DNA of 64,000 bases, taken from a virus (lineage: Duplodnaviria; Caudoviricetes). The notes below the pieces were generated by a model. It did no database searches and was not told the origin of the DNA. It worked only from the letters and a program-made list of their open reading frames with translations. A program made the position numbers and the translations under genes. Where the stretch lies: the IMG/VR virus record IMGVR_UViG_3300035498_000745, positions 1-64,000 of that record. One strand, 5' to 3'. Positions 28,381-42,600 of this stretch are shown piece after piece; position 1 is the stretch's first letter, and each line of letters opens with the position of its first letter.

Positions 28381-29901
28381 TCATTTTTTAAACACTGGCA
28401 TACACATTACTTTCTTAACTTTGTACTTATCCCTTATAACAGCAGCTCTTTCTTGTATATCTATATCTGGCATTGCTACATCTCTACATGATTTAGCATA
28501 TGTAGAGAATACAGGTTTCTTAGCAGAATAGTATCTTTTAGTAAAATAGAATCCTTGATCTACTAAATCAAAATAGAAAGTATCATTAGCTCTACATCTA
28601 CCAAGAGTTTGTCTTGCTAATACAGAAGACTTAAATGGTTCAGCTAAATTTATAGTACAACACAAGTCTGCTATATCTTGAGCAGCACCGCAAGATTTAG
28701 TTGTAGATAATATGATCTTCTTATACAAATTTAACTCTTTAGTTTCTTTTTCAGATAAACTAGTATACACCCCCACGCTATTAACTAAAAATGGGAAATC
28801 TTGAATTATGTGATCTCTAACTCTCATAATGCCTGCGTTGGTGCCTATATAAATAAGAATCTTGCCATTCATCGGTAAAACCATTTCTATTAATATAGTT
28901 ACCATATCTAAAAACATAGGTCTATTTACTATATAATCAACATATCTATTTCTATCAAATCCATAAGCATTCTTACATTTATTTATATCCATAGGTGATG
29001 GGTGTGAATTAAAATGGAAAGCTACATAATTAACATGTGGATCAGTATCTTCATTAAATAAGACTATAGATGGAATATTTTTAAAATATAATTGATAGAT
29101 ACTATTCTCATCTTCATTAGATCTTTCTGGTGTAGCGGTAAGATATATAGTCTTCTTTGTATTTGAATGGTAATCAATTTTTGACATGTTATCGAAATAC
29201 AAATGAGCCTCATCAAATACTTTTAATGAGCATTTTAAATACTTAAAAAACTCATCTACTTTATCCCATCCATTCTTATCTCCATAAGATTTTATAGTAG
29301 AATGAGAAACTAAGAATATTTGATAATCTAATGGATTTCTACATTGTAATTTGGATATAGATCCTGCTCCAGAAACAGTAAATATCTGATTATCATTCAA
29401 TGGAGTATACTCTAATATTCTAGCTCTCCATTGATCTAACCAATTTAATGAGCTAGTAATAATTATAGCTCTAGCTCCAGTAAAACATATTGCTCCTACA
29501 GTGACAAATGTTTTACCAGATCCAGTTGATGAATTTACTGACAATTGGGATTTAGTTCTTGTATATATATATTTACCATCACCAATTAAGAACTTTAATA
29601 TCTCTACTTGTCTATCATCTTTAGTAAGATACTTTATAGGTATAGGTTCAGTATCCACATATGGATCACATTGTTTATCAACAATAGCATTGCAGCAAAA
29701 CATATTCTCCAAATAACCAATATCTAATCCTCTTGGAACTATAAGTTTTCTTTTTTCATCATCATATTCAATAAATCGTATAAATGATGTATGTCTTAAT
29801 TTATCATATACTGAAAAACAATATTCTAACCTTGGGCAATCTCCCATGTCATAATTATTTATTTCTATTCTAGAATGTTTTAATACTACTTTATTTTGCA
29901 T
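28381..29901 (-). CDS. Superfamily 2 DNA helicase (UvsW-like)
   Basis: TGSGKT, FDEAH, LTATP, QTLGRCR. Confidence 0.9.
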   Translation of the reverse strand: MQNKVVLKHSRIEINNYDMGDCPRLEYCFSVYDKLRHTSFIRFIEYDDEKRKLIVPRGLDIGYLENMFCCNAIVDKQCDPYVDTEPIPIKYLTKDDRQVEILKFLIGDGKYIYTRTKSQLSVNSSTGSGKTFVTVGAICFTGARAIIITSSLNWLDQWRARILEYTPLNDNQIFTVSGAGSISKLQCRNPLDYQIFLVSHSTIKSYGDKNGWDKVDEFFKYLKCSLKVFDEAHLYFDNMSKIDYHSNTKKTIYLTATPERSNEDENSIYQLYFKNIPSIVLFNEDTDPHVNYVAFHFNSHPSPMDINKCKNAYGFDRNRYVDYIVNRPMFLDMVTILIEMVLPMNGKILIYIGTNAGIMRVRDHIIQDFPFLVNSVGVYTSLSEKETKELNLYKKIILSTTKSCGAAQDIADLCCTINLAEPFKSSVLARQTLGRCRANDTFYFDLVDQGFYFTKRYYSAKKPVFSTYAKSCRDVAMPDIDIQERAAVIRDKYKVKKVMCMPVFKK

Positions 29902-30002
29902 TATACCTCACCTCTCAGTATTAGTCATTATTATTAAGTCTGTATAGTGATAAAAAATAATAAACTGTGGGAATTATATCCCACAGTTTATCATCTGTTA
30001 AA

Positions 30003-32192
30003 TTATTTTGCCTCGTTTTTATCTACAATTTTAACCATATCAATGGTTTTAGCGTAATCTCTAATATTAACATCTTCTTCATCTACTAAAATATCTTCCT
30101 GCATATATACCTGTGGCTGTTCATGGAAGAATAGATCGAAGAATGATGGTGCGTTCTTAGTAAATGTTAATGGGTTATACAATACTTTATTGAGATCTTT
30201 ATAAAGTAATGATACAATAACGCTAGGATTATTTGTAAGTGCTTGATTAAGTGTAAGAATCCTATACTGAGCATTAGGATCATTCCAATTTGGTTTCCTC
30301 AAAATGTCATCTTTGCTAACAATTTGATTAGCCAAAATAACCTCAAGATGAATAGCATCAACATCAAGATTTCCTTCAATTACTAAATCGACTATAGACT
30401 GTAATGCTTCATCTTTAGTCATATTCCCAGTAATATCAGATTTGTTAAGTATATTGATAATACCATCCATTGTCTTGGAGATCTCACTGTTATTGATTTT
30501 GATATAAAATAATGGTTCATCCTGTAAAGAATCTAAAGGAATATTTACTTTATTATCATCATTCTTAGCTTTTCTTCTAATAATAGAATTAAGCTCGTTA
30601 GAGATATATAAAGACTCATCAGATTCAGAACCAAATTTTACCATATTACCATTAGGATATTTGATATAGAAATGAGTTATATACTCATTATAAGTAATAC
30701 TGTCTTCAGCATCAATCTTATTTCCGTCATCATCATACTTAACAGTATCTTCTTCATCATTAACTAAGTTTACATCATCTGGATCTATAATCATTGTATA
30801 TTTTCTAAGATCTGGAATACTGTCTTCTAAGTCGCTTATAAGACTAATACTATTTATATCAATCTCAAATAACTGGTCGAATTCTTTATTCCACTTAGTA
30901 ACAATAATTTTAGTTTCCAAAAGATGCTTAGCTGATAACAAAGTTTGTGTAAGCATTGATGATAAGATCTCAGCTGCAATCTTGCCGACATTGATGTCTC
31001 TATTAGTCCAATATAGATCACCATAACATTTTCTACAAATACCATGACCAGAAGATAAACTGGCACATGTCATTGGAGAGTGTAAGAAGATAGTCTTCCC
31101 TATGAGAGAAGTATCTTTATCATCTAAGATATGATCCATTCCAAAAGGATTATATCTGAAATTACGATTCTTAACCATGCTAAGATGTTTAGCCGTCTTT
31201 ATCTCAAATCTGATAAAGTGTCTAGACATACACTGATATGTTTCTATTGGATTAAGTATGGTGTCTGTATTATTTAATCCAAGTAATCTAGCAATGTCTC
31301 CAGAGTTTCCTACATTGATTTTCGATAACTTCTGAGCAGTTCTTGCAGTTGATGATTCAATATAGAAAGCTACAGGTTCATTAACACCTCCATTGCTAAA
31401 TGATTTATTTATAATATATGGGTATACAGTATCATATACTGATTTGGTTCCAATATTAATTCTAGACTCTTTATACTGTCTAGGATTGATTGCCTCGGAT
31501 GCTCTGAATGAATTCGTTAACCCATGCTCATAGCCAATATACTTTTTAGAATTCTTTATGATTTCAATAGTTCTATCTGCTATAGCCTGACCAGCATCCT
31601 TAACATCATTGATAGGTACATTTGCAAATGATGTATGCATAAGATCATAATACTCAGGACATGCTTCCATGAGAGCAATATCATCTTCATTATTAATAGT
31701 ATTTGCTAAATAATATGCAAACGGCTCTATCTGTGAGAAGTTCCAAGTTCCATCAGCAATAATATTATTAAGTTCATAATTGCCGATACTAATCTTGTTA
31801 TCTATTGTAAGCACATAATCATCTATAAACTGTTTGATATTTTTGCGCTTTAATTCAGGAGACCAAAATATATTACGTGGACTGATCTTGCCATTGGTTT
31901 TTAAGATCATACTCCACATGAATAAACAATACCAATAATCTATGAATGATAATTCGCACCAAACATCTCCTCCCCAAGATATAGTAATCTTGGTATCATG
32001 TACATAGTCTGTTTCGATACCATCTTTTAATATATTGCTTATACCAATAATATGGTCATCAATATTAGATGCAGTAATATCATTTGGCACCATAATTGCA
32101 ATGGCGCTATATTTACTTACAGCATCTCCGTAAATAAAATAGTTCTTATAATTTTGTAGTGGCTTATACTCCACTATATTAGTTTCTGCCAT
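30003..32192 (-). CDS. rpoC: Multisubunit RNA polymerase beta'-like subunit, C-terminal half (probably non-virion RNAP)
   Basis: SPMTC...GICRKCYG Zn site, NVGKIAAE...TQTLLSAKH trigger loop, IHLEVIL; early-type motif at 32238-32248. Confidence 0.9.
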   Translation of the reverse strand: MAETNIVEYKPLQNYKNYFIYGDAVSKYSAIAIMVPNDITASNIDDHIIGISNILKDGIETDYVHDTKITISWGGDVWCELSFIDYWYCLFMWSMILKTNGKISPRNIFWSPELKRKNIKQFIDDYVLTIDNKISIGNYELNNIIADGTWNFSQIEPFAYYLANTINNEDDIALMEACPEYYDLMHTSFANVPINDVKDAGQAIADRTIEIIKNSKKYIGYEHGLTNSFRASEAINPRQYKESRINIGTKSVYDTVYPYIINKSFSNGGVNEPVAFYIESSTARTAQKLSKINVGNSGDIARLLGLNNTDTILNPIETYQCMSRHFIRFEIKTAKHLSMVKNRNFRYNPFGMDHILDDKDTSLIGKTIFLHSPMTCASLSSGHGICRKCYGDLYWTNRDINVGKIAAEILSSMLTQTLLSAKHLLETKIIVTKWNKEFDQLFEIDINSISLISDLEDSIPDLRKYTMIIDPDDVNLVNDEEDTVKYDDDGNKIDAEDSITYNEYITHFYIKYPNGNMVKFGSESDESLYISNELNSIIRRKAKNDDNKVNIPLDSLQDEPLFYIKINNSEISKTMDGIINILNKSDITGNMTKDEALQSIVDLVIEGNLDVDAIHLEVILANQIVSKDDILRKPNWNDPNAQYRILTLNQALTNNPSVIVSLLYKDLNKVLYNPLTFTKNAPSFFDLFFHEQPQVYMQEDILVDEEDVNIRDYAKTIDMVKIVDKNEAK

Positions 32193-32237
32193 ATTAAATC
32201 ACTCCTTTACATATACTTTACTTACTTCTTCCATATA

Positions 32238-32248
32238 ATAATATACAA
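32238..32248 (-). promoter_or_regulatory. Early-type promoter TTGTATATTAT (representative copy)
   Basis: Variants at 75-85(-), 2714-2724(-), 11452-11464(-), 15580-15590(-), 25364-25373(-), 28350-28360(-), 35108-35117(+); resembles the phiKZ early TATATTAC element. Confidence 0.6.
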
Positions 32249-32317
32249 CAGAAATCAAATTTTGTCAGTATATATTATATTAAATTGTTTCAGCACATAT
32301 AAAAACGAAAAGATTTC

Positions 32318-32339
32318 CCGGTAGCATCTAGCTACCGGG
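32318..32339 (-). terminator. Terminator closing the non-coding transcript
   Basis: CCCGGTAGC/GCTACCGGG stem followed on minus strand by T-rich tract. Confidence 0.8.
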
Positions 32340-32756
32340 GTCAAGGAGATTTTTGGTAACAAAACTACTTATTAAATAAGTTGGGGAAATTTGTTAAACA
32401 AAAATAAAGAAAAACAAATTCTACTAGTTTACATCTGATCATTTTTGATGACAGCAACTTAACTTGTAGATATAATGTAGCCTCCTGCCTGCTACTTACC
32501 GGTAGCTATACTAACACCTCTTGAGATTCATTACTGACTACTGGGTCTATGACCTATCTCAATTAGCTACCCCATAATCGGTATCGTTATCCGATCAACG
32601 TCAATCCTTAATTAATTCGCTTGCTGTACGAAACTACTCGTCAGGAACATAGAAAAATTCTATGCTATTCCATTGATCATCCTAACTGTAGGCTGGATTC
32701 TCACCAGCAGCAGAAATGAAAACGGTATATTGTAAAGGCACGAAGTAAATATACCA

Positions 32757-32954
32757 AATCGTTACTACATTCACGTTCGGGGTTGGGGTTATGACCGCAA
32801 ATGCAGTAACGAAGTACTTGTAAACGCTGTAACACATCTACAAGTAAAGCAATAGCAAAAAGGTAATCGTTACTACATTCACACTCGGGTTGGGGGTTGA
32901 GCATAAATGCAGTAACGAAATACTTGTAAACGCTATGACACGCCTACAAGTAAA
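32757..32954 (-). repeat. Two ~90-nt direct repeats, each a pair of hairpins
   Basis: Copies 32757-32848 and 32865-32954; differences lie in loops or mostly preserve pairing. Confidence 0.9.
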
Positions 32955-33320
32955 AACTAGAATATTATCGCGATTTATCTAGATAGCTATGCGTTGCTAC
33001 ATCTCAGTTTTTAAATCCATAAACTTTAACCGGTTCACAATCTACAAACCATAGATAACAGGAGAAGCAAGCCATCAAAGAACACCCATTATCCATATTT
33101 TATGGATCATATTCTGAACGCCAGTCTTCTCGTAACTGACAACGCCTGTTCGATATATCAACAAGAAACTTCACCCTTAATTTACGCCGGTTACTGCACA
33201 GGTTGTTATTCCTTTTTATATTCCCTACATATGTAGGGATGAATCAATGAAAAAAGAGAGACTGCTCGCCCGCCCGCATGTCCGACATCACACATATAGT
33301 TTTGGGTTTCTATATGCGGA

Positions 33321-33390
33321 ATACTTAATTAGGATTCGAACCTAGAAACTAATATTTATTATTCCATGCATCCTTTAGCATGATTAAGTA
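33321..33390 (-). tRNA. tRNA-like element / pseudo-tRNA
   Basis: Acceptor TACTTAA/TTAAGTA, D-arm ATGC-TAAAGGAT-GCAT, T-arm TAGG-TTCGAAT-CCTA; anticodon arm short and non-canonical, no encoded CCA. Confidence 0.55.
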
Positions 33391-33447
33391 ATTTTAATTA
33401 GAATAATTATTTCCACTACATACTTGTTATAGTAGTGGTAAAAAAAT

Positions 33448-33474
33448 ATTACGGAGGATTTTACTCCTCCGTAA
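33448..33474. terminator. Terminator after endolysin
   Basis: TTACGGAGGA/TCCTCCGTAA stem. Confidence 0.75.
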
Positions 33475-33530
33475 ATACCTTAAAATAAAGTGGCTAGTTT
33501 ATTTCTTGGCTTCATTGAGTTATTGTTGCC

Positions 33531-34349
33531 CTACTTAGATGTTAGTAATGATTTTATCTTTTTATAACTTGCATTACCATAAATTCCATCCTGAGTAAGA
33601 CCATACTTTTTCTGGAATGCTTTTAATGCAGTCTCAGTCTTAGCTCCAAATGAACCATCCACACTAATACCAGAATTCATTACATAATTTAAATCATGCT
33701 GAAGTAATGTAACCTGTGCTCCACTAGAACCTTTCTTTAAAGTTGGTTTAGCTGCATCAGGAGCGATGCTCTTAGAAGAATTTGTTTTTGTATTTGATTC
33801 TAAAGTAGATGAAGAATCATACTTTGGTCTACCATAGCCAGCAATTCTACTATAAGTAAGAAGATACTGTTTCTTTGCAACACAACCGCCATTTGCTACA
33901 ACTCCAGCACCAGAAGATGTATTACCTTCAATAGTATATATAGATATAGAATCAACTTTATATACTAATCCTGTATGACAAATCTTTCCTGAAGAATTCT
34001 TAAAGAATACCTGATCACCAATCTTTGGATTACTAGTATACCAAGCATTTTTCTTCTTATACATATCAGCAGACGCTATAGTATAATCATTAAAATCTCC
34101 AGCAAGAAGTTTCTTAGCATTAGTAATACCATATGCTTTATAAAAACACCAATCAACAAAACAATCACACCAGAATGCTGGGTAATCCATTACTGAAGGA
34201 TAAATCTGATGCATCTCTTTTCCATATTTAGTATAATTCTTATCACCTGCATTGGCTGTCTTATCATATAGATCTTTGTCGCTTTCTTTTTCAAGATAAC
34301 CAACTTCTGCTTCAGCAATTTTTATAACTTTATTTACAGTATTAGCCAT
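33531..34349 (-). CDS. Endolysin: CHAP amidase plus C-terminal peptidoglycan-binding domain
   Basis: WCDCFV, HTGLV, TIEGNT; LKKGSSG.QV..LQ...DG.FG..T..A.K.FQ..YGL..DG. Confidence 0.9.
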   Translation of the reverse strand: MANTVNKVIKIAEAEVGYLEKESDKDLYDKTANAGDKNYTKYGKEMHQIYPSVMDYPAFWCDCFVDWCFYKAYGITNAKKLLAGDFNDYTIASADMYKKKNAWYTSNPKIGDQVFFKNSSGKICHTGLVYKVDSISIYTIEGNTSSGAGVVANGGCVAKKQYLLTYSRIAGYGRPKYDSSSTLESNTKTNSSKSIAPDAAKPTLKKGSSGAQVTLLQHDLNYVMNSGISVDGSFGAKTETALKAFQKKYGLTQDGIYGNASYKKIKSLLTSK

Positions 34350-34492
34350 ATTATTATACCTCCTTTAAAGATTAAATAAAAATATAGCGTTATTGCTATT
34401 AATTTAGTGTTGTTTATTTGAGCGAAGTATTTGCGGTAGGATAAACCCTACCGCTTTACTCCAGCAATTTATTAAAAGTAAATTAATTTATT

Positions 34493-34996
34493 TTACATCT
34501 TAATCATTGGAAGTGCAGGCATCTTACGCATTGCTTTAATGTGCTGCTTCTGGCTTCTCTTTGCTACAAGACCAGCCTTATTACCATACTTCTTAAAGAT
34601 TGCATTACGAAGCTTACGCTCCTTAACTCTATTAAGAGCTAACTGATGGAATAATGGATCATTCTTTTCCTTAGCAATTACGATAGATGCTAAGTGAGCT
34701 CTACGTGTCAAATCATCATCCTTATTAAGACGAACGTATGTCTTTTTACTCATCTTTCTAGCTTCATCTAATTTCTGTAACTGACCTGACTCCATGAAGT
34801 TATTTAATGCTTCCTCTCCGCCATCAAAGTATACCACAGATTCAAGAGCTGACTGCATCATAATATTCTCTACATCTGATGCGATAGCTTCGATACCTTC
34901 TGGGGTATCCGGATCTTTATTAAGTACTTTATCTAATTCATCTGAAACTGGGTTGGACATGCCAGCACCACACTCATCTTCTTTTAAAAAAATCAT
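34493..34996 (-). CDS. Late protein, acidic N-terminus and basic C-terminus (probable processed head protein)
   Basis: 167 aa, late promoter 35047-35058, own terminator. Confidence 0.6.
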   Translation of the reverse strand: MIFLKEDECGAGMSNPVSDELDKVLNKDPDTPEGIEAIASDVENIMMQSALESVVYFDGGEEALNNFMESGQLQKLDEARKMSKKTYVRLNKDDDLTRRAHLASIVIAKEKNDPLFHQLALNRVKERKLRNAIFKKYGNKAGLVAKRSQKQHIKAMRKMPALPMIKM

Positions 34997-35147
34997 ATTT
35001 AATTTTCCTCCTTATAATTTTATTTATAATTCTCAGCTGAATTATTTACTAAGATGTTGTTAGCTGAGGTTTATGATTTTTTATTCGAGCTTAAACTTTG
35101 AAGTAATCATATATTATAATTATGAATAAAAAGAAAGGAGATTTTAT

Positions 35148-38100
35148 ATGGAAATACAAACAGATAGTATTAACCTAAAACCAATCCAGGAGTATCGTCA
35201 AATAATGATTGATGGTTTAAGACATTCATTTCCGGGATTGAATGTGGAAGAATTATCTAAAGCAATTGATTGGTCTATTAGTAATAGATTATATAATGGG
35301 CCAGCAGTCTTAGATAATAATTACACTAAGCAAAAAGCAAATGGAACGGTTCTAGATATATTACGTTATATAGAAAGACTAGAACCAATAAAGACATCTA
35401 GTGGGGTATTATTTAAACAAAGCAAAGAAGCAGATAATCCATTTGATAGAATGATAGCTGGATTTCTAGAGAAGCGAGGTCAATATAAGGATAAAATGTT
35501 TAAATACCCCAAAGGTAGTTATGAATTCGCTAAGTATAATCTATTTCAAATACTTGAGAAAAAGAATGCTAATGCTTGTTATGGATGCTTAGGAGCTCCA
35601 TCATCAATGTATTATAATATATACGTAGCGGAAGCAGTAACAAGACAGGGAAGATCATATATATCTTGTAGTATTACTCTATTTGAATCATTGCTTGCTA
35701 ATAATGTGAAGTTTAATAACTTAGATGAAATTATCACATTCATTAATAATGTGGAGCATGAGAAACCAAATAGAAAGTGTTTAGATAGTGCTATACTTGA
35801 TATGGATATTACTGTAAATGAATGTTTCTATAAAGTAATGACTACTGTAGATCCTACAATATGGATTCCTACAGAAAAAGAGATGAGTCTTGTATATGAA
35901 TATATTAGAGGATTATCTCAAGAAGATATAAACAGAGTATATTATAAGAATAACTTATATACGTTCTGTGATCTACCAATTGTTTCAGATCTTATCATTA
36001 AGATTCTATCTAAACTTGGAGGACCAACTCAGTTTGAATCTGATGACCCTAATAGTAAGATAGTAAATAACTTATTCATGAATCCTAATAAACCACCAAA
36101 AGCAATTAAGGAAGATCTTGATATATTCGTAGATATGATTAAGGAGTATGTATATTATCCACACTTTTATATAGACAAATTAGATCGTATAGAATATATG
36201 CAAAGAGATGTAGTTTGTCTTACTGATACAGACTCAACAATAGTATCATTTGATGCTTGGTATAGATTTATACTTGAAAAGGTATATAATTTAGATATGC
36301 CTATAAAGCATGAAAAATTTGATATGGTGGAAATTATAAAAGCTGATGAATTTGGAGATCTTGATAAGAAGGTTATGTGTAAAATTGTAGATCCTAGGTT
36401 TGATTATGATTTCTATACAGATGAAGAAATAGAAACTCGAAGATATATAGAGCCTGCAAAAGTTGTGCCACAGGATATGCTTAAGTTTGGTATTATAAAT
36501 ATAATAGCATATGCATGTAGCGCATTAGTAGTAGATTATCTTAGTGAGTATTCTAAACTTTCTGGTACTTATGTTGAAGGTAGGAAGTGCGCACTTGTGA
36601 TAAATCTTTGTCACCTTATAGCAGTAATGCTGTGAGTAAAACTTTGTGAAATGCTGGAAAGTGCTAAAGCTCGAATGCCTATATGGAATCGAAAGATAGA
36701 AATAAGTTTCGAGATGGACTATGGTGAAATAAAAGCTTTGTATATTTTGAAGTAGGATATACAAGGTCCTAAGGTCTATTAACAATGTACGATCAGCAGA
36801 TTGGATTGGATTGATTAAATAAATTAATAAAGGTGGTGATATTTTGCCAAAAAAGAAAAGAAAGCCTAGAACAACGCCTAGAATAGAACTAGATTTTAAT
36901 AAAGTATACTCTTCAAAAAGGGATGGAGACTATATACTTTTAGAAGAGGTCAAAATAGAAAATGATAGTAATAGGCATATATTAATAAAATTTCTGGATA
37001 CAGGCAATGAACAATTAGTACACCCATCAGAAATATACCATTGTATGATAAGGGATAGAAAGAAACATGGTATAGATTATGATAAAGTTTATAGTAGTAA
37101 TAACTTTGGAGATTTTGTCATTATTAAAGACGCTGGAAGTAGAAAACAAGGGAATCATTCCCATAAATTAGTTAAAATAAAATTTCTTGACACCGGAAGT
37201 GTAAAAGTTGTAAGATTAGCTGATGCTTTGGTTGGTAATATAAGAGATGATTATAGACCAAATGTAGCCGGAGTAGGTTGTATAGGAAATGCTTCTAGTT
37301 ATCATCCAGCATATAATGTATGGAATAGCATGTTGCAGAGATGTTATTGTAAAACTGATGCTAATTATGTAAGATATGGTGCTAAGGGAATTACAGTATG
37401 CGAAAGATGGCATTGTTTTGAATATTTCTTAGAAGATTTACCATACATTGATGGTTATAATAATTGGTTAAATAATCCTGAATTATACCAATTAGATAAG
37501 GATTACAAACAACAAGGAATTCCTTATAATAAAAAAATATATTCTTTAAAAACTTGCTGTTTTATTGAAGACTATAATAATGTAGCATTAGCGACAAAAT
37601 CAAAAAATAAATATATTGGTGTTACTAAATTAATAAATGGGTATAATTCCAATATTACAGTTTGTGGAATAAATTATAATTTAGGTAGCTTCATTAATAA
37701 AGATGATGCAGCAGCTGCATATAATAATGCAGCAAATTACTTACGTAATAATAATTTAGTATTAAATGATGTACCATACGTTGATCCAGAAATTTTAGAT
37801 ACAAGAAAAATACGACACATAAATATGTGCAGAATAGTATAATAAACCCAAATAATCAATCCAATTTAATCCCAACGACTATCCCCATATGGGCTGTGAA
37901 ATTCAGCAACAGGAGTAGGGCCTATGAAATTTATAGGTTGGTGAAAATCCATTAAATCCAAGCGCAAAGCATCCTAATAGGTAAAGCTAAGGATGAAGAT
38001 ATAGTCTACGCTCTTAGAGAAATACTAAGGTAAATTCCTCAGCCTACACAAACTGTAAGCTGACGAATGTTCAGGGAAGAATGAATACTACTTCAGTAGA

Positions 38101-38793
38101 GCATTATTAACTTCACATAGAAGAAATTATGCCAGTTATCAAATTCTACAAGAAGGAAACATTATACCAGAAAGTGAAAGATTATCTATAGCAGGTTTAC
38201 CAATAGATAAATCTACATTACCAATAGATATTAAGGATGAGTTTAAAAGAATTATTTGTGAAGATATTATGAAGGCTGATAATATGGATCAGATAGGGAT
38301 AATGAAAAAACTTATACTTATGGAAAACAAAATCTATAAGAGTATTATGAATAAGGAAACTAAATATTATAAACCTGATAATGTAGCTCCAATTAATTCA
38401 TATGCTAAAAATCCATTAGAGGTGAATGGCGTAGTAGCATGTCTTATTTATAATGAAATGAAAGATGATGATATGCAAGCTATAAATCTTGAAGAGAGAA
38501 ATGCTATTATTAAAATCAAAATTGACGTTGATAAGAAAAACGTTGATAAAATTAAAGATTTATATCCTGATAAATATACTAAACTTGTTAATCTTCTTAA
38601 TCATCCAACACTTGGATCTAAGGTTAATATAATAGCATTACCATTAGATACAGCTGTACCAGATTGGGTATTAGAGTTTGTAAATTTTGGAGAAATTATT
38701 AGTGATTCTTTAAAGAATTTCCCTCTTGGATCTATTGGATTAAATCGTTTAGATAACGATAGCGTAAATGTATCAAATATTATTCAGTTATAA
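35148..38793 (+). CDS. Family B DNA polymerase, C-terminal subunit (spliced, ~723 aa)
   Basis: Exons 35148-36601 and 38076-38793 join as CALV-M-KNEYYF; motif B KKNANACYG, motif C TDTDS, RRNYA. Confidence 0.88.
36602..38075 (+). mobile_element. Group I intron 3 carrying homing endonuclease
   Basis: P1 GUGAU|AAA..UUUGUCAC with U.G, core CAACGACTA...AAGATATAGTC, terminal G; removal restores frame. Confidence 0.9.
36844..37842 (+). CDS. Intron-encoded HNH-type endonuclease with duplicated N-terminal domain and AP2-like C-terminus
   Basis: WNSMLQRCY, YGAKGITVCERW, LDKD, YSLKTC, YIGV...LGSF...AAAAYN. Confidence 0.8.
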   Translation: MPKKKRKPRTTPRIELDFNKVYSSKRDGDYILLEEVKIENDSNRHILIKFLDTGNEQLVHPSEIYHCMIRDRKKHGIDYDKVYSSNNFGDFVIIKDAGSRKQGNHSHKLVKIKFLDTGSVKVVRLADALVGNIRDDYRPNVAGVGCIGNASSYHPAYNVWNSMLQRCYCKTDANYVRYGAKGITVCERWHCFEYFLEDLPYIDGYNNWLNNPELYQLDKDYKQQGIPYNKKIYSLKTCCFIEDYNNVALATKSKNKYIGVTKLINGYNSNITVCGINYNLGSFINKDDAAAAYNNAANYLRNNNLVLNDVPYVDPEILDTRKIRHINMCRIV

Positions 38794-39632: not shown

Positions 39633-42600
39633 ATGGCTTATGGTAATGTAATAACACCATCATATGTAGTTAATTATCATCAAGGTCAAATGGTACAGCA
39701 AAGAGCAGCTCCCAAACAAAGACCTCAGCCACAACCTATAAGGACTGTATATAGTCAAAAGACAACTAAGAACAAAAGCTTCTTAGATATGCATCATTAT
39801 CTTAAATCCATTGGTGTAAATAATAATGAATTTATGCTTGCCTTATTAGATCCTGACTTAGATGGAATTGACCCTTATGATCCAAATTTAAATGCCTATT
39901 ACAAACAGAAAATATTAAGAGAATGCATATGCAATTATTGGTATTTCCTCAGAGAGATAGTCAAATTACCATCATCAGGTGCTAAACCTATGCGTTTTAA
40001 ACTAGATCGTGGTAATTTAGCTTATAATTTTTGTGCATCTCTTAATATGAATATATTTCTTGAAGAGCCTCGGCTAATAAAATAACCCATCTTATATAGA
40101 AATATATAGGATGAATCTCTTTTAATTTGCTGGGAAGTGCTAAAGCCATTTAGCCTATTAATAGGAGACGAAAGTCAGAAATAAGTAAATGGATGAGCTA
40201 TGCTGAGAAAAAGCTAATTTATAATTGGTGCTAAGGCTTGATAACAATGTGCAATCAGCGTCTAAGATTTATTAATTATACTATATAATTTTAATCTTGA
40301 TAAAGATTATCTTCAACAAGATCTTTATATTGGAGATAGAGTATATTCAAAAGAAACATGTGTTTGGTTAGATAGATCTACAAATGGTAAACTTGCAACA
40401 AAAACATTTAATGATGAATTAGATTATGTAGATAAATCTGGGAATTTAAAGAAAGTGACTATGGTTAGTATAATTAATAAATAAAGTTCAACGACTATCC
40501 CTCGGATGCGGCTCTTAAAATAATGCATCAATAGGAGTAGGGCTCAAGTGAGCGGGTGAGATCCCCTTAAATCGAAATGGAGAGTTACCTTAAATGGTAA
40601 AGATATAGTCTCGACACTTGGAGAAAGACCAAGGAAGTTCATAAGAGAACTGCATAGATTAACGACCTATGTGAAGACACCGAGAGAGGTAAGACAACAT
40701 CTGTTGCTATAAGGCATTTATATTTATATAATTTTGGTACTACTAATTCTAAAATGGCTTTCCTCCATAAGAATATGGATGGTTCTAAGGATAACTTAGC
40801 AACAATGAAAACTATTAGAGATTTATTACCTCAATATTTGGTTCTTAAAGAAAGGATTACACCAGATGGCAAAGTAGATAAAGGTAAAGATAATACTACA
40901 GAAATTGTAAATCCATTTAACAATAACCATATTAAAGCATTTGCTTCTGCTACAAATAAAGCAAAAGCAGCATCATTATTACGTGGTAAAGATTTGCCCT
41001 ATACTATGGTGACATAGTGTAGAATGGCTATTAACGCTGGGAAGTGCTAAGGCTCTCTTGCCTATTATATAGGAGACGAAAGTCAGAAATAAATAGAGAG
41101 ATGGGCTATGCTGAAATAAAAGCCAATTATTTATAATTGGTGCTAAGGTCTATTAACAATGTGTAATCAGCATCTAATCTTAATATATTTAACCAAATAC
41201 AAGTAATTAAATATTTTTTATAATAAAGGAGGATATTTAATATGGTGGTAGAAGTAGGGGGAATTTATAAATCTAAAAAATGTGGAGAATATGAAATTTT
41301 ATGTAGAAACGATCAAGAATCATATAACAAATTTAGAACATGCTATGATATAAAATTCTTAAAGACTAAATATGTTACTACAGTAAGAGTCGATCAAATA
41401 AATACTGGCAGTATTAAGGATCCATATTTTCCATCAGTATGTGGAATTGGTTATTTGGGTGAGCCTAAAAATGAGTATAGAGATCCATATATTTATAATA
41501 GATGGAATAATATGATAAATAACTGTTATAATGATAAATATCGTAATTATAGTTTACATGGAGCTTTAGGAATTACAGTATGCAAAAGATGGCATTGTTA
41601 TGCTAATTTTGCAGAAGATATAGAATCATTACCTGGGTATGATGATATGATAAATAATCCTAAAAAAAGATATAGACTAGTAATAGTACAACAAAATACT
41701 CCTGAAAATCAAAAAATATATTCTCCAGAAACATGTATTCTTATTAATCAATAATGCTTGGTTAAAAATATTTGATTAGTTCAACGACTATCCCCATATG
41801 GGCTGTGAAATTCAGCAACAGGAGTAGGGCTCAAGTGAGTAGGTGAGAACCCTTTAAATCAAAAAATAGCCTACCTCTTATATAAGAGGTAAAGATATAG
41901 TCTCAACTCTTAGAGAAATACTAAGGAAGTTCATAAGAGAACTGCGGGAATTAACGACTCTCGTGAAGACAATTGAAATCATTGACTTTGATGTGGTTTG
42001 ATGAGTATGGATTCCTACCATATAATGATATTATCTACATGAATGGTGCTCCTGCATATAAAACAGCATCTTCAATAGCTAAAGCAAATGGAGCTCCTTA
42101 TGGTATAACTATAACAACGACTCCGGGCTTCCTCAGCACAGATGAAGGTAAGGAGGCATATGCCATGAAAGAGAGTGCTACTAAATTCTCTGAAACATGG
42201 TATGATAAATCATATACTGAATTAATGGATATTATTAACGCTAATACTAAATCAGATTATGTATATATTAGATATACATATCAGCAGCTTGGATGTTCAG
42301 AAGAATGGTTTAGAGATGTATGTAGATTACTTAAGAACTCATGGCCTGATATTAGACGTGAGATCTTATTAGAGTGGGCTACAGGTGTTGAAAATTCTCC
42401 ATTTAAAGAAGAAGACCTAGATACTATAGCAGGCTTAATAAGACAACCTATATCAGAGGTATACTTGTTAGGCAAATACAGATTTGAAACTTATCTTCAA
42501 GCAGATACTAGAACTTATCCTGCAATTATAGGTGTCGATGTTGCAGGTGGTTATAAGCAGGATAGTTCTACCATAACAGTTGTAGATTCACAAACAACTA

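Follow-up and report, generated by a model that had tools for sequence, protein, structure and literature searches.

The window analysed here is a stretch of 64,000 nucleotides, positions 1 to 64,000 of the IMG/VR record IMGVR_UViG_3300035498_000745, a virus fragment of 89.8 kb that is about 37% complete by estimate. The largest gap between open reading frames (ORFs) in this window, positions 32193-33530 (1338 nt at an ORF cut-off of 80 or 100 amino acids), lies between two complete minus-strand genes: upstream a gene for an endolysin with CHAP and PG_binding_1 domains (33531-34349), and downstream a gene for a beta'-like subunit of a multisubunit phage RNA polymerase (30003-32192). At a cut-off of 60 amino acids the gap is split by one frame of 67 amino acids (32701-32904, minus strand), which lies over duplicated hairpins. 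The stretch has a G+C content of 0.36-0.40 versus 0.27-0.33 in the flanks, and the first-pass annotation, which had described it as the largest ORF-free stretch of the window and as richer in G+C than its surroundings, was right on both points, on the first at the larger cut-offs. The stretch is probably a transcription unit for a large structured non-coding RNA that belongs to no described family and is located in the transfer RNA (tRNA) island locus of an uncultured jumbo phage.

Of 80 IMG/VR loci carrying a related endolysin, two were similar to the ORF-free stretch: L003, from a contig of 238.8 kb, and L002, a fragment of 8 kb that is 98.9% identical to L003 over the unit. In both of them the endolysin gene is followed by 1170 nt without ORFs and by a beta' gene that is 77% identical to that of the window. 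The features of the unit in the window are as follows, listed in the direction of the minus strand.

33474-33449, minus strand: terminator-like hairpin and T run, the second of its kind here, closing the upstream endolysin gene
33417-33431, minus strand: late-promoter-like motif TATAACAAGTATGTA, fitting A(-11)ACA-N6-T-A(+1) (bare motif 33428-33417), with a predicted start at 33417
33322-33393, minus strand: degenerate tRNA-like element with a 7-bp acceptor-like stem, a D-like hairpin and a T-arm, without a normal anticodon loop
33291-33318, minus strand: hairpin following the tRNA-like element (CGCATATAG...CTATATGTG), from local folding
32984-33290, minus strand: variable 5' domain, 307 nt versus about 208 nt in L003, poorly alignable
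32955-32983, minus strand: block A, conserved best of all parts and identical to L003 at 28 of 29 bases, spanning TCTAGATAA and TCGCGATAATATTCTAGTT
32867-32952, minus strand: module copy a, consisting of hairpin HP1a (32952-32921, loop TGTCATAG) and the long hairpin HP2a (32918-32867, C-rich loop)
32759-32846, minus strand: module copy b, a tandem duplicate consisting of HP1b (32846-32815) and HP2b (32812-32759)
32724-32755, minus strand: hairpin HP3 (GGTATATT...AATATACC), from local folding
32693-32707, minus strand: 'T-loop-like' hairpin CTGG-TGAGAAT-CCAG, from local folding
32501-32713, minus strand: conserved 3' core with nine consensus helices and 58 pairs
32472-32499, minus strand: hairpin GTAGC-AGGCAGGAG-GCTAC with an extended stem, from local folding
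32340-32471, minus strand: A+T-rich 3' tail, at the place where a 96-nt hairpin region and a tRNA-Lys(ttt) are found in L003
32300-32339, minus strand: intrinsic terminator (hairpin and T run 32339-32317) with a 9-bp stem, 7 G-C pairs and the T-rich tail AAATCTTTTC

Thus, on the minus strand, the terminator of the endolysin gene is followed by the promoter-like motif, the ORF-free body and a second terminator. The consensus of the late promoters of phage AR9 is given as A(-11)ACA-N6-T-A/G(+1), and promoters of this type are described as being recognised by the non-virion RNA polymerase on uracil-containing template DNA (PMC7598289). The AACA-N6-TA at 33417 suggests a promoter of a phage polymerase of the AR9 type. 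The bare motif is frequent: counting both strands, the window has 133 matches, of which 35 fall in its 9954 intergenic bases. It is therefore weak evidence when taken alone; the weight of the promoter rests on its conservation. In L003 the motif occupies the same place and reads TATAACAATCTGGTA, and both the L003 unit and a tRNA unit of another relative (L114) are preceded by TATAACAA-N5-TA with TTTTAC before it (similarity E 0.001). The motif with its upstream TTTAC is kept in L003, L114 and L115. The hairpin at 32339-32317 has the properties of an intrinsic terminator: it is rich in G+C, has a T run behind it and ends the unit on the transcribed strand. It stays in place in L003, where the stem is re-coded and yet pairs (CCCGGTAGC/GCTACCGGG versus GCCCAGTGG/CCACTGGGC). 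The bounds that had been proposed from the window sequence, AACA-N6-TA and a terminator, thus hold in the relative as well.

The stretch is also present in RNA libraries. Four metatranscriptome runs (X1-X4, from four coded studies, all of 2025 and labelled gut metagenome, which may for that reason be one campaign) each contained 13-32% of the sampled words of the stretch. When their contigs were placed on positions 29000-37000, contigs without a single difference covered parts of 32499-32883 and 32944-33207 in four of the four runs: 32536-32792 and 32944-33170 in X1, 32499-32780 and 32969-33163 in X2, 32738-32883 and 32968-33207 in X3, and 32572-32779 in X4. No contig lay on 33208-33417 or 32318-32498, and the flanking genes were covered by only two pieces of 151 nt (depth 2, run X4). 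Since the runs were selected for containing this stretch and uncovered parts carry no weight, neither ends nor a ranking of expression were drawn from the contigs.

Evidence for a structured RNA comes from the comparison with L003. The identity between the two units is about 60% (130 of 218 aligned bases for the 3' core, 86 of 130 for the module), and exact shared blocks of 9-19 nt, including parts of block A and four blocks of the 3' core, are found in the same order in both. The four core blocks are CAATGGAATAGCATA (32675-32661), TTCTATGTTCC (32654-32644), TAAGGATTG (32610-32602) and AGTCAGTAATGAAT (32539-32526), the last of which contains a small hairpin, TCA-GTAA-TGA. A consensus structure of the 3' core was predicted by RNAalifold from a MAFFT alignment (window 32713-32501) and has 58 pairs in nine helices, one of which joins the distant parts 32713-32709 and 32638-32634. 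In this structure 98.3% of the cells are paired, and 16 pairs keep pairing through changes on both sides. When the 3' partners were shuffled, 5.7 +/- 2.0 such pairs were obtained and none of 500 shuffles reached 16; with the partners slid by 1-3 columns, the count was 0-2. Block A together with the module has 33 predicted pairs, 7 of them changed on both sides, against 2.3 +/- 1.2 in shuffles (0 of 500) and 0-1 with slid partners, so that altogether 23 of 91 predicted pairs keep pairing through two-sided changes. The stem of HP1 is fully re-coded in L003 while its loop is kept (TGTCAYAG with two closing pairs). Six differences separate L002 from L003 in the 3' core, some of them on predicted pairs: three keep pairing (U-G to C-G, U-G to U-A and A-U to G-U) and a fourth falls on an unpaired consensus column.

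Because the structures and the counts come from the same sequences, and the counts are inflated by this, the same MAFFT and RNAalifold pipeline was run on ten coding windows (270 nt each) taken from both flanking genes. Double changes numbered 2-7 in these windows and 17 in the 3' core, and the consensus energies were -14.8 to -28.9 and -40.0, respectively. The parts of the predicted RNA that are kept are thus block A, the HP1-HP2 module and the nine-helix 3' domain, and the 5' domain is free to vary, with a weak consensus fold of -8.9 kcal/mol. The retention of the promoter motif, the terminator and a folded core with compensatory changes in a related phage supports the first-pass interpretation as a structured non-coding RNA unit on the minus strand.

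The folding of single sequences points to the same strand as the bounds. The minus strand of 32499-33207 folds with -212.3 kcal/mol (z = -5.75, none of 20 shuffles as good) and the plus strand with -155.9 kcal/mol (z = -2.99). Among the 58 pairs of the 3' core, 6 are G-U in the window, 14 in L003 and 12 in L002; on the opposite strand these would be A-C mismatches, which identifies the minus strand as the folded one, as had been proposed from stems completed by G-U pairs. In windows of 400 nt (12 shuffles per window, hence noisy) the excess of folding is located mainly in 32600-33199. The earlier description of the region as full of hairpins was borne out on the minus strand, with folding at the two ends that is no better than in the neighbouring genes. 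The T-loop-like hairpin named in that description does exist at 32707-32693, but it is not conserved, and no hairpin is formed at the aligned place in L003.

Several other local hairpins have positional counterparts of a different sequence. At the place of the hairpin 33291-33318, L003 has one of another sequence (TTTGCCGT...ACGGCAAA), and the same applies to HP3, which corresponds to the hairpin at L003 8149-8184. The hairpin at L003 8430-8458 has a loop (AAGCCGAGAG) similar to that of 32472-32499 and competes there with core helix 6. The only repeats in the stretch are the two hairpin modules, a tandem duplication about 107 nt apart (106-108), in which the direct repeats 32757-32848 and 32865-32954 are 81-88% identical. 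This duplication is restricted to the phage of the window, L003 having a single module. Block A is single-copy in the window and is predicted to form a 5-bp hairpin, CTAGA/TCTAG (32982-32978 with 32961-32957), with a loop of 16 nt that contains the palindrome TCGCGA.

The RNA could not be assigned to a known family. No match at the gathering score was obtained with Rfam 15 in the whole 64-kb window, and a search of 32100-33650 at E <= 10 with lax filters gave only eight hits at chance level, the best of them with E 1.7; two hits in the L003 unit, both of the tRNA model, were the only credible ones there. ROOL, GOLLD, OLE, HEARO, raiA, tmRNA, RNase P RNA, 6S RNA and recognisable group I and group II introns were ruled out on the basis of no Rfam 15 match, and the suggestion that the RNA stands outside known families has passed the covariance-model check proposed for it. 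For introns a negative from models alone is weak, since the Rfam model also missed a likely intron in the DNA polymerase gene of this window, but a group I intron is further excluded by the completeness of both neighbouring genes and by the terminator and promoter that lie between them. No earlier description was found in the literature on large phage and jumbo-phage RNAs, a search that did not extend to the supplementary motif lists of large-RNA surveys.

Searches for further homologues were equally narrow in their yield. In distant mode, blastn of the region against 50,697 phage records gave no match. Scans of IMG/VR with beta' (as a single protein and as a two-protein alignment) returned nothing or the L003 contig alone, and the genome contig collection contained no beta' relative. 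Three RNA patterns searched in IMG/VR found only L002 and L003, plus block A in an unrelated locus, L082. The sole hit of the metagenome scan (L085) was rejected as a chance match, because it lies in the gag-pol frame of a copia-type retroelement. A covariance model of the 3' core (R1) found only the window, L002 and L093 (within the L003 record) in 77 sources (800 kb), and did not do better than E 0.44 in any of five whole jumbo-phage records. A model of the module (R2) found, in 10 records, only the record of the window, the L003 record and block A in L082.

The 5' end of the unit contains an element that is related to tRNA and that, like the internal 107-nt duplication, was absent from the first-pass annotation. 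It has an acceptor stem, a D arm and a true T-arm (TAGG-TTCGAAT-CCTA, 33344-33330), and it lacks the cloverleaf with a 7-nt anticodon loop of a tRNA. ARAGORN calls it only at a threshold of 70% and with a two-base 'anticodon'. At default settings ARAGORN reports neither a tRNA nor a tmRNA anywhere in the window, and the Rfam tRNA model does not call the element at E <= 10 either. Its counterpart in L003 (7729-7799) is less degraded: it scores 29.2 bits against the Rfam tRNA cut-off of 29, has a cloverleaf with an anticodon loop of 6 nt, and is read by ARAGORN as Lys-like with a two-base anticodon. The two acceptor stems have different sequences, and each of them pairs. L003 carries a good tRNA-Lys(ttt) close to the 3' end of the unit, where the window has its A+T-rich tail, and no tRNA was found there (32340-32471) by ARAGORN, including at lowered thresholds. 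ARAGORN calls of a 'permuted tmRNA' at thresholds of 70-80% were rejected as noise, as they occurred on either strand with implausible tags.

The tRNA-like element and the tRNA-Lys are the only two tRNA-model hits in the whole L003 record (238.8 kb), and both lie in the unit, so this locus is the tRNA island of the L003 phage. In three more distant relatives (G001, G002 and G004) ordinary tRNA islands occupy ORF-free stretches of 0.9-1.3 kb, with 3-6 tRNA-model hits per record, and the islands of G004 and G001 are preceded by the extended motif TTTAC...ATAACAA-N5-T. The island of G004 (313 kb; L114 1740-2760, minus strand) consists of TTTTAC...TATAACAATATTGTA, a tRNA-Gln, an ORF-free spacer of 705 nt, a tRNA-Leu and a terminator. 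Its only significant similarity to the unit of the window is the promoter segment (E 0.001). The 705-nt spacer folds with z -4.22 and may be another unrecognised RNA. As in the window, the islands of these relatives combine the same promoter type with an ORF-free layout and a terminal terminator; in contrast to them, the window has lost or degraded its tRNAs and conserved the non-tRNA part, and beyond the promoter and the tRNAs themselves the islands are not similar to its unit. The phage of the window keeps the unit without a usable tRNA, which argues that the non-tRNA RNA is the selected product.

The closest known parallels are the large phage RNAs ROOL and GOLLD, which are described as building cage-like particles whose function is still open; ROOL occurs in phages and prophages, often near tRNA islands, and GOLLD, for which multimers were shown, has a conserved 3' part and a variable 5' part (bioRxiv 10.1101/2024.12.08.627333). 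By this account, the RNA proposed here resembles GOLLD in being phage-borne, large, adjacent to tRNAs and composed of a conserved 3' and a variable 5' part. It differs in that it matches neither GOLLD nor any other Rfam model even under the lax search, and in its setting (a jumbo phage that has an RNA polymerase and a promoter type of its own, a degenerate tRNA at the 5' end, two lineages). With ROOL, as described there, it shares the phage setting near a tRNA island and, by the run records, a source in the animal gut, but no Rfam match and no common sequence blocks were seen. The comparison with ROOL and GOLLD is thus apt as an analogy and does not imply family membership. A further parallel is offered by the mammalian long RNAs MALAT1 and NEAT1, which are reported to be matured through a tRNA-like element (PMC12941219). 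A tRNA-like fold at the end of a long non-coding RNA would likewise be a possible handle for tRNA-processing enzymes, with the differences that in these eukaryotic RNAs it is located at the 3' end and that the RNA of the window would carry it at the 5' end, its cleavage being inferred.

Dimerisation hairpins of the type of the human immunodeficiency virus 1 (HIV-1) dimerisation initiation site, which act by loop-loop contact, present a six-base palindrome in the loop. The predicted loop of block A similarly exposes the self-complementary UCGCGA flanked by A residues. Unlike that system, block A also precedes a tRNA in L082 (1-2700; record G010, 76 kb), an unrelated locus in which it stands four bases before a tRNA with the anticodon tta, and a processing or protein-binding signal fits equally well. 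Block A may serve in loop-loop pairing, in processing or in the binding of a protein. When as many as 3 mismatches were allowed, it was no more frequent in five whole relatives than a reversed-pattern control, and none was found in the genome collection. Its interpretation as a sigma-70 promoter was dropped as no -35 element is conserved, and that as a repeated phage promoter because block A is unique in the window. Two tertiary contacts were also dropped: an 11-nt tetraloop receptor (UATGG / CCTAAG), the second half of which is present in L003 only, and the pairing of the C-rich HP2 loops with the conserved TATGGGGT, whose Gs are already engaged in consensus helices 5 and 6. L082 itself has an array of 12 tRNAs, including the one with the anticodon tta, which would read the stop codon TAA, and a tmRNA.

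Taken together, the conserved motifs suggest the following course of events. Transcription would be started at AACA-N6-TA (33417) by the phage's own multisubunit RNA polymerase and would stop at the hairpin 32339-32317. The degenerate tRNA at the 5' end, in L003 together with the tRNA-Lys at the 3' end, might be recognised by the host RNase P and the 3' tRNA-processing enzymes; the tRNA and tRNA-like elements are probably handles for the maturation of the RNA by such enzymes. Processing of this type would free a core of about 0.7-0.9 kb composed of a rapidly evolving 5' domain, the invariant hairpin of block A with its UCGCGA loop, one or two HP1-HP2 modules and the multi-helix 3' domain. For this core, conservation and compensatory change were observed and the fold itself is predicted. 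Speculatively, and by analogy with ROOL and GOLLD, it might act as RNA late in infection, in a scaffold or assembly, with block A as a possible site of loop-loop pairing between RNA molecules. A bolder form of this proposal is that the unit represents a third, independent particle of the ROOL/GOLLD type: a tRNA island taken over, transcribed by the phage polymerase, trimmed by host enzymes at the tRNA remnant and joined by UCGCGA and the C-rich loops of the modules into a multimer made of RNA alone. This we regard as distinctly doubtful.

Several observations weigh against a single large functional RNA. The RNA data consist of assembled contigs from runs selected for the stretch and are silent on strand, ends and level. 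Only two independent lineages of the unit are available, and with L002 being 98.9% identical to L003 a covariation statistic of the R-scape type is impossible. The consensus structures were derived from the same sequences that were used for counting the pairs, and the coding windows are an imperfect control, being less diverged (71-77% identity versus 59% for the 3' core) and so offering less opportunity for double changes. Conservation is lacking in the 5' third, which can hardly be aligned with L003. Both ends, 32400-32799 (z -2.5) and 33000-33399 (z -1.0), fold like neighbouring genes, the excess being concentrated in the duplicated hairpins. The two covariance models were empty in 8 and 5 further records, respectively, save for block A in L082. 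Finally, a long gap upstream of beta' is absent from 17 of 17 relatives whose beta' is 57-66% identical (their gaps are of 0-290 nt, without similarity to the unit), and the position next to beta' is consequently special to the subclade of the window and L003.

These points leave room for other explanations, of which the processing of the transcript into several small stable RNAs (the tRNA-like piece, the HP1-HP2 modules and the 3' core being cut apart as in phage tRNA clusters) is the least unlikely. The build is modular, with a duplication in one phage only and linkers between the domains, the locus is a tRNA island, where precursors with multiple products are the rule, and the contigs fall into separate pieces, 32499-32883 and 32944-33207, none spanning the whole unit. 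However, the breaks between contigs coincide with the internal repeat, which would interrupt assembly too, and contigs of 195-282 nt exceed typical small RNAs and cross domain borders (32499-32780). The consensus fold also links distant parts of the 3' core, and no processing signals are evident besides the tRNA-like ends. It is rather improbable that the locus is merely a decaying tRNA island, in which the promoter and terminator remain and the rest is functionless spacer. Such decay would agree with the degraded element left in the phage of the window, with the one degraded and one good tRNA of L003, with the unconserved 5' domain and the narrow family, and with the length of the tRNA islands of the relatives; but exact blocks of 14-29 nt beside about 60% identity are unexpected for an unconstrained spacer, as are the 23 pairs kept through two-sided changes and the acceptor-like stem of the pseudo-tRNA, re-coded and still paired.

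That the repeats and palindromes act as DNA, in a replication origin, a packaging site or an array of protein-binding sites, appears very unlikely. The two 107-nt direct repeats might be read in this way, and palindromic block A with its TCGCGA core, shared with an unrelated phage, could be a protein site. The repeats are hairpin modules, though, of which L003 has just one, the helices rely on G-U pairs and hence on one strand only, a promoter motif and a terminator bracket the stretch on one strand, and RNA libraries contain it. A replication origin in particular was rejected: the stretch is richer in G+C than its flanks, it has no repeats other than these modules, and the sign of the G-C skew switches near 35000, outside the stretch. 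The remaining alternative, a protein gene hidden by an unusual genetic code or by frameshifts, has a practically negligible probability. A phage of the same collection (L082) does carry a suppressor tRNA, with the anticodon tta, but the stretch stays closed under any single stop-codon reassignment, with longest frames of 92-157 codons in 1338 nt, and the neighbouring genes are normal in code 11. The small frames are not conserved, that of 67 amino acids having no counterpart in L003, and the insertions and deletions relative to L003 do not come in threes. The reading as a transcription unit for one large structured RNA is therefore the one retained here.

The host of this RNA is, judging by its polymerase, a member of a large uncultured clade of jumbo phages that are distant kin of AR9 and PBS1. 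The beta'-like gene matches PHROG 3015 (E 5e-40) and is 26-27% identical to the subunits of AR9, PBS1 and other jumbo phages (tblastn), and 1191 homologues were found at E <= 1e-20 in a large protein collection, many of them on contigs of about 250 kb; clade membership is deduced from these relationships. Four of the homologues, on contigs of up to 249 kb, are 75-78% identical to the beta' of the window and point to additional phages of its subclade. Upstream of beta' (window 32240-32300; L003 8720-8790), both phages have GAAACAATTTAATATA, another match to AACA-N6-TA, followed by an A+T-rich run similar to TATATTAT, which we take to resemble the early promoter of AR9; the two may be a pair of late and early promoters. 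The endolysin of L003 (6001-7635) is twice as long as that of the window (544 versus 272 amino acids), with an additional central part and two PG_binding-like repeats (tblastn).

Elsewhere in the window, the gene of a family B DNA polymerase is split into 35148-36635 and 38269-38793, with an ORF for an HNH endonuclease (36844-37842; PHROG 2081, E 1e-46) between the pieces. The region 35148-38793 looks like an intron or the insertion of a free-standing homing endonuclease; no Rfam intron match was obtained there at E <= 1. Between the first piece of the polymerase gene and the HNH ORF, 49 bases (36688-36736) are the sole match of contigs from the RNA runs X3 and X4, with 2-4 differences, and these contigs continue into unlike sequence, on both sides in X4 and on the one recorded side in X3. 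By these matches, 36688-36736 is a short element common to the transcripts of other organisms. An ORF of 150 amino acids (39633-40085) matches only part of a terminase large subunit (PHROG 32359), and it is followed by the second long gap of the window, 40086-41241 (1156 nt at an ORF cut-off of 100 amino acids and 668 nt at 60), so the terminase may be another split gene.

The value of the finding is limited by the narrowness of the family and the lack of a cultured host. Within these limits, an unrelated RNA with the genomic habits of ROOL and GOLLD would show that their niche has been filled more than once. The phage of the window separates this RNA from tRNAs, having kept the one with no working copy of the other, and if a third invention of the ROOL/GOLLD type proved true, it could help to explain how particles of this kind make use of tRNAs. 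Long tRNA-island spacers also merit systematic attention throughout this clade of jumbo phages, which is widespread in the gut.

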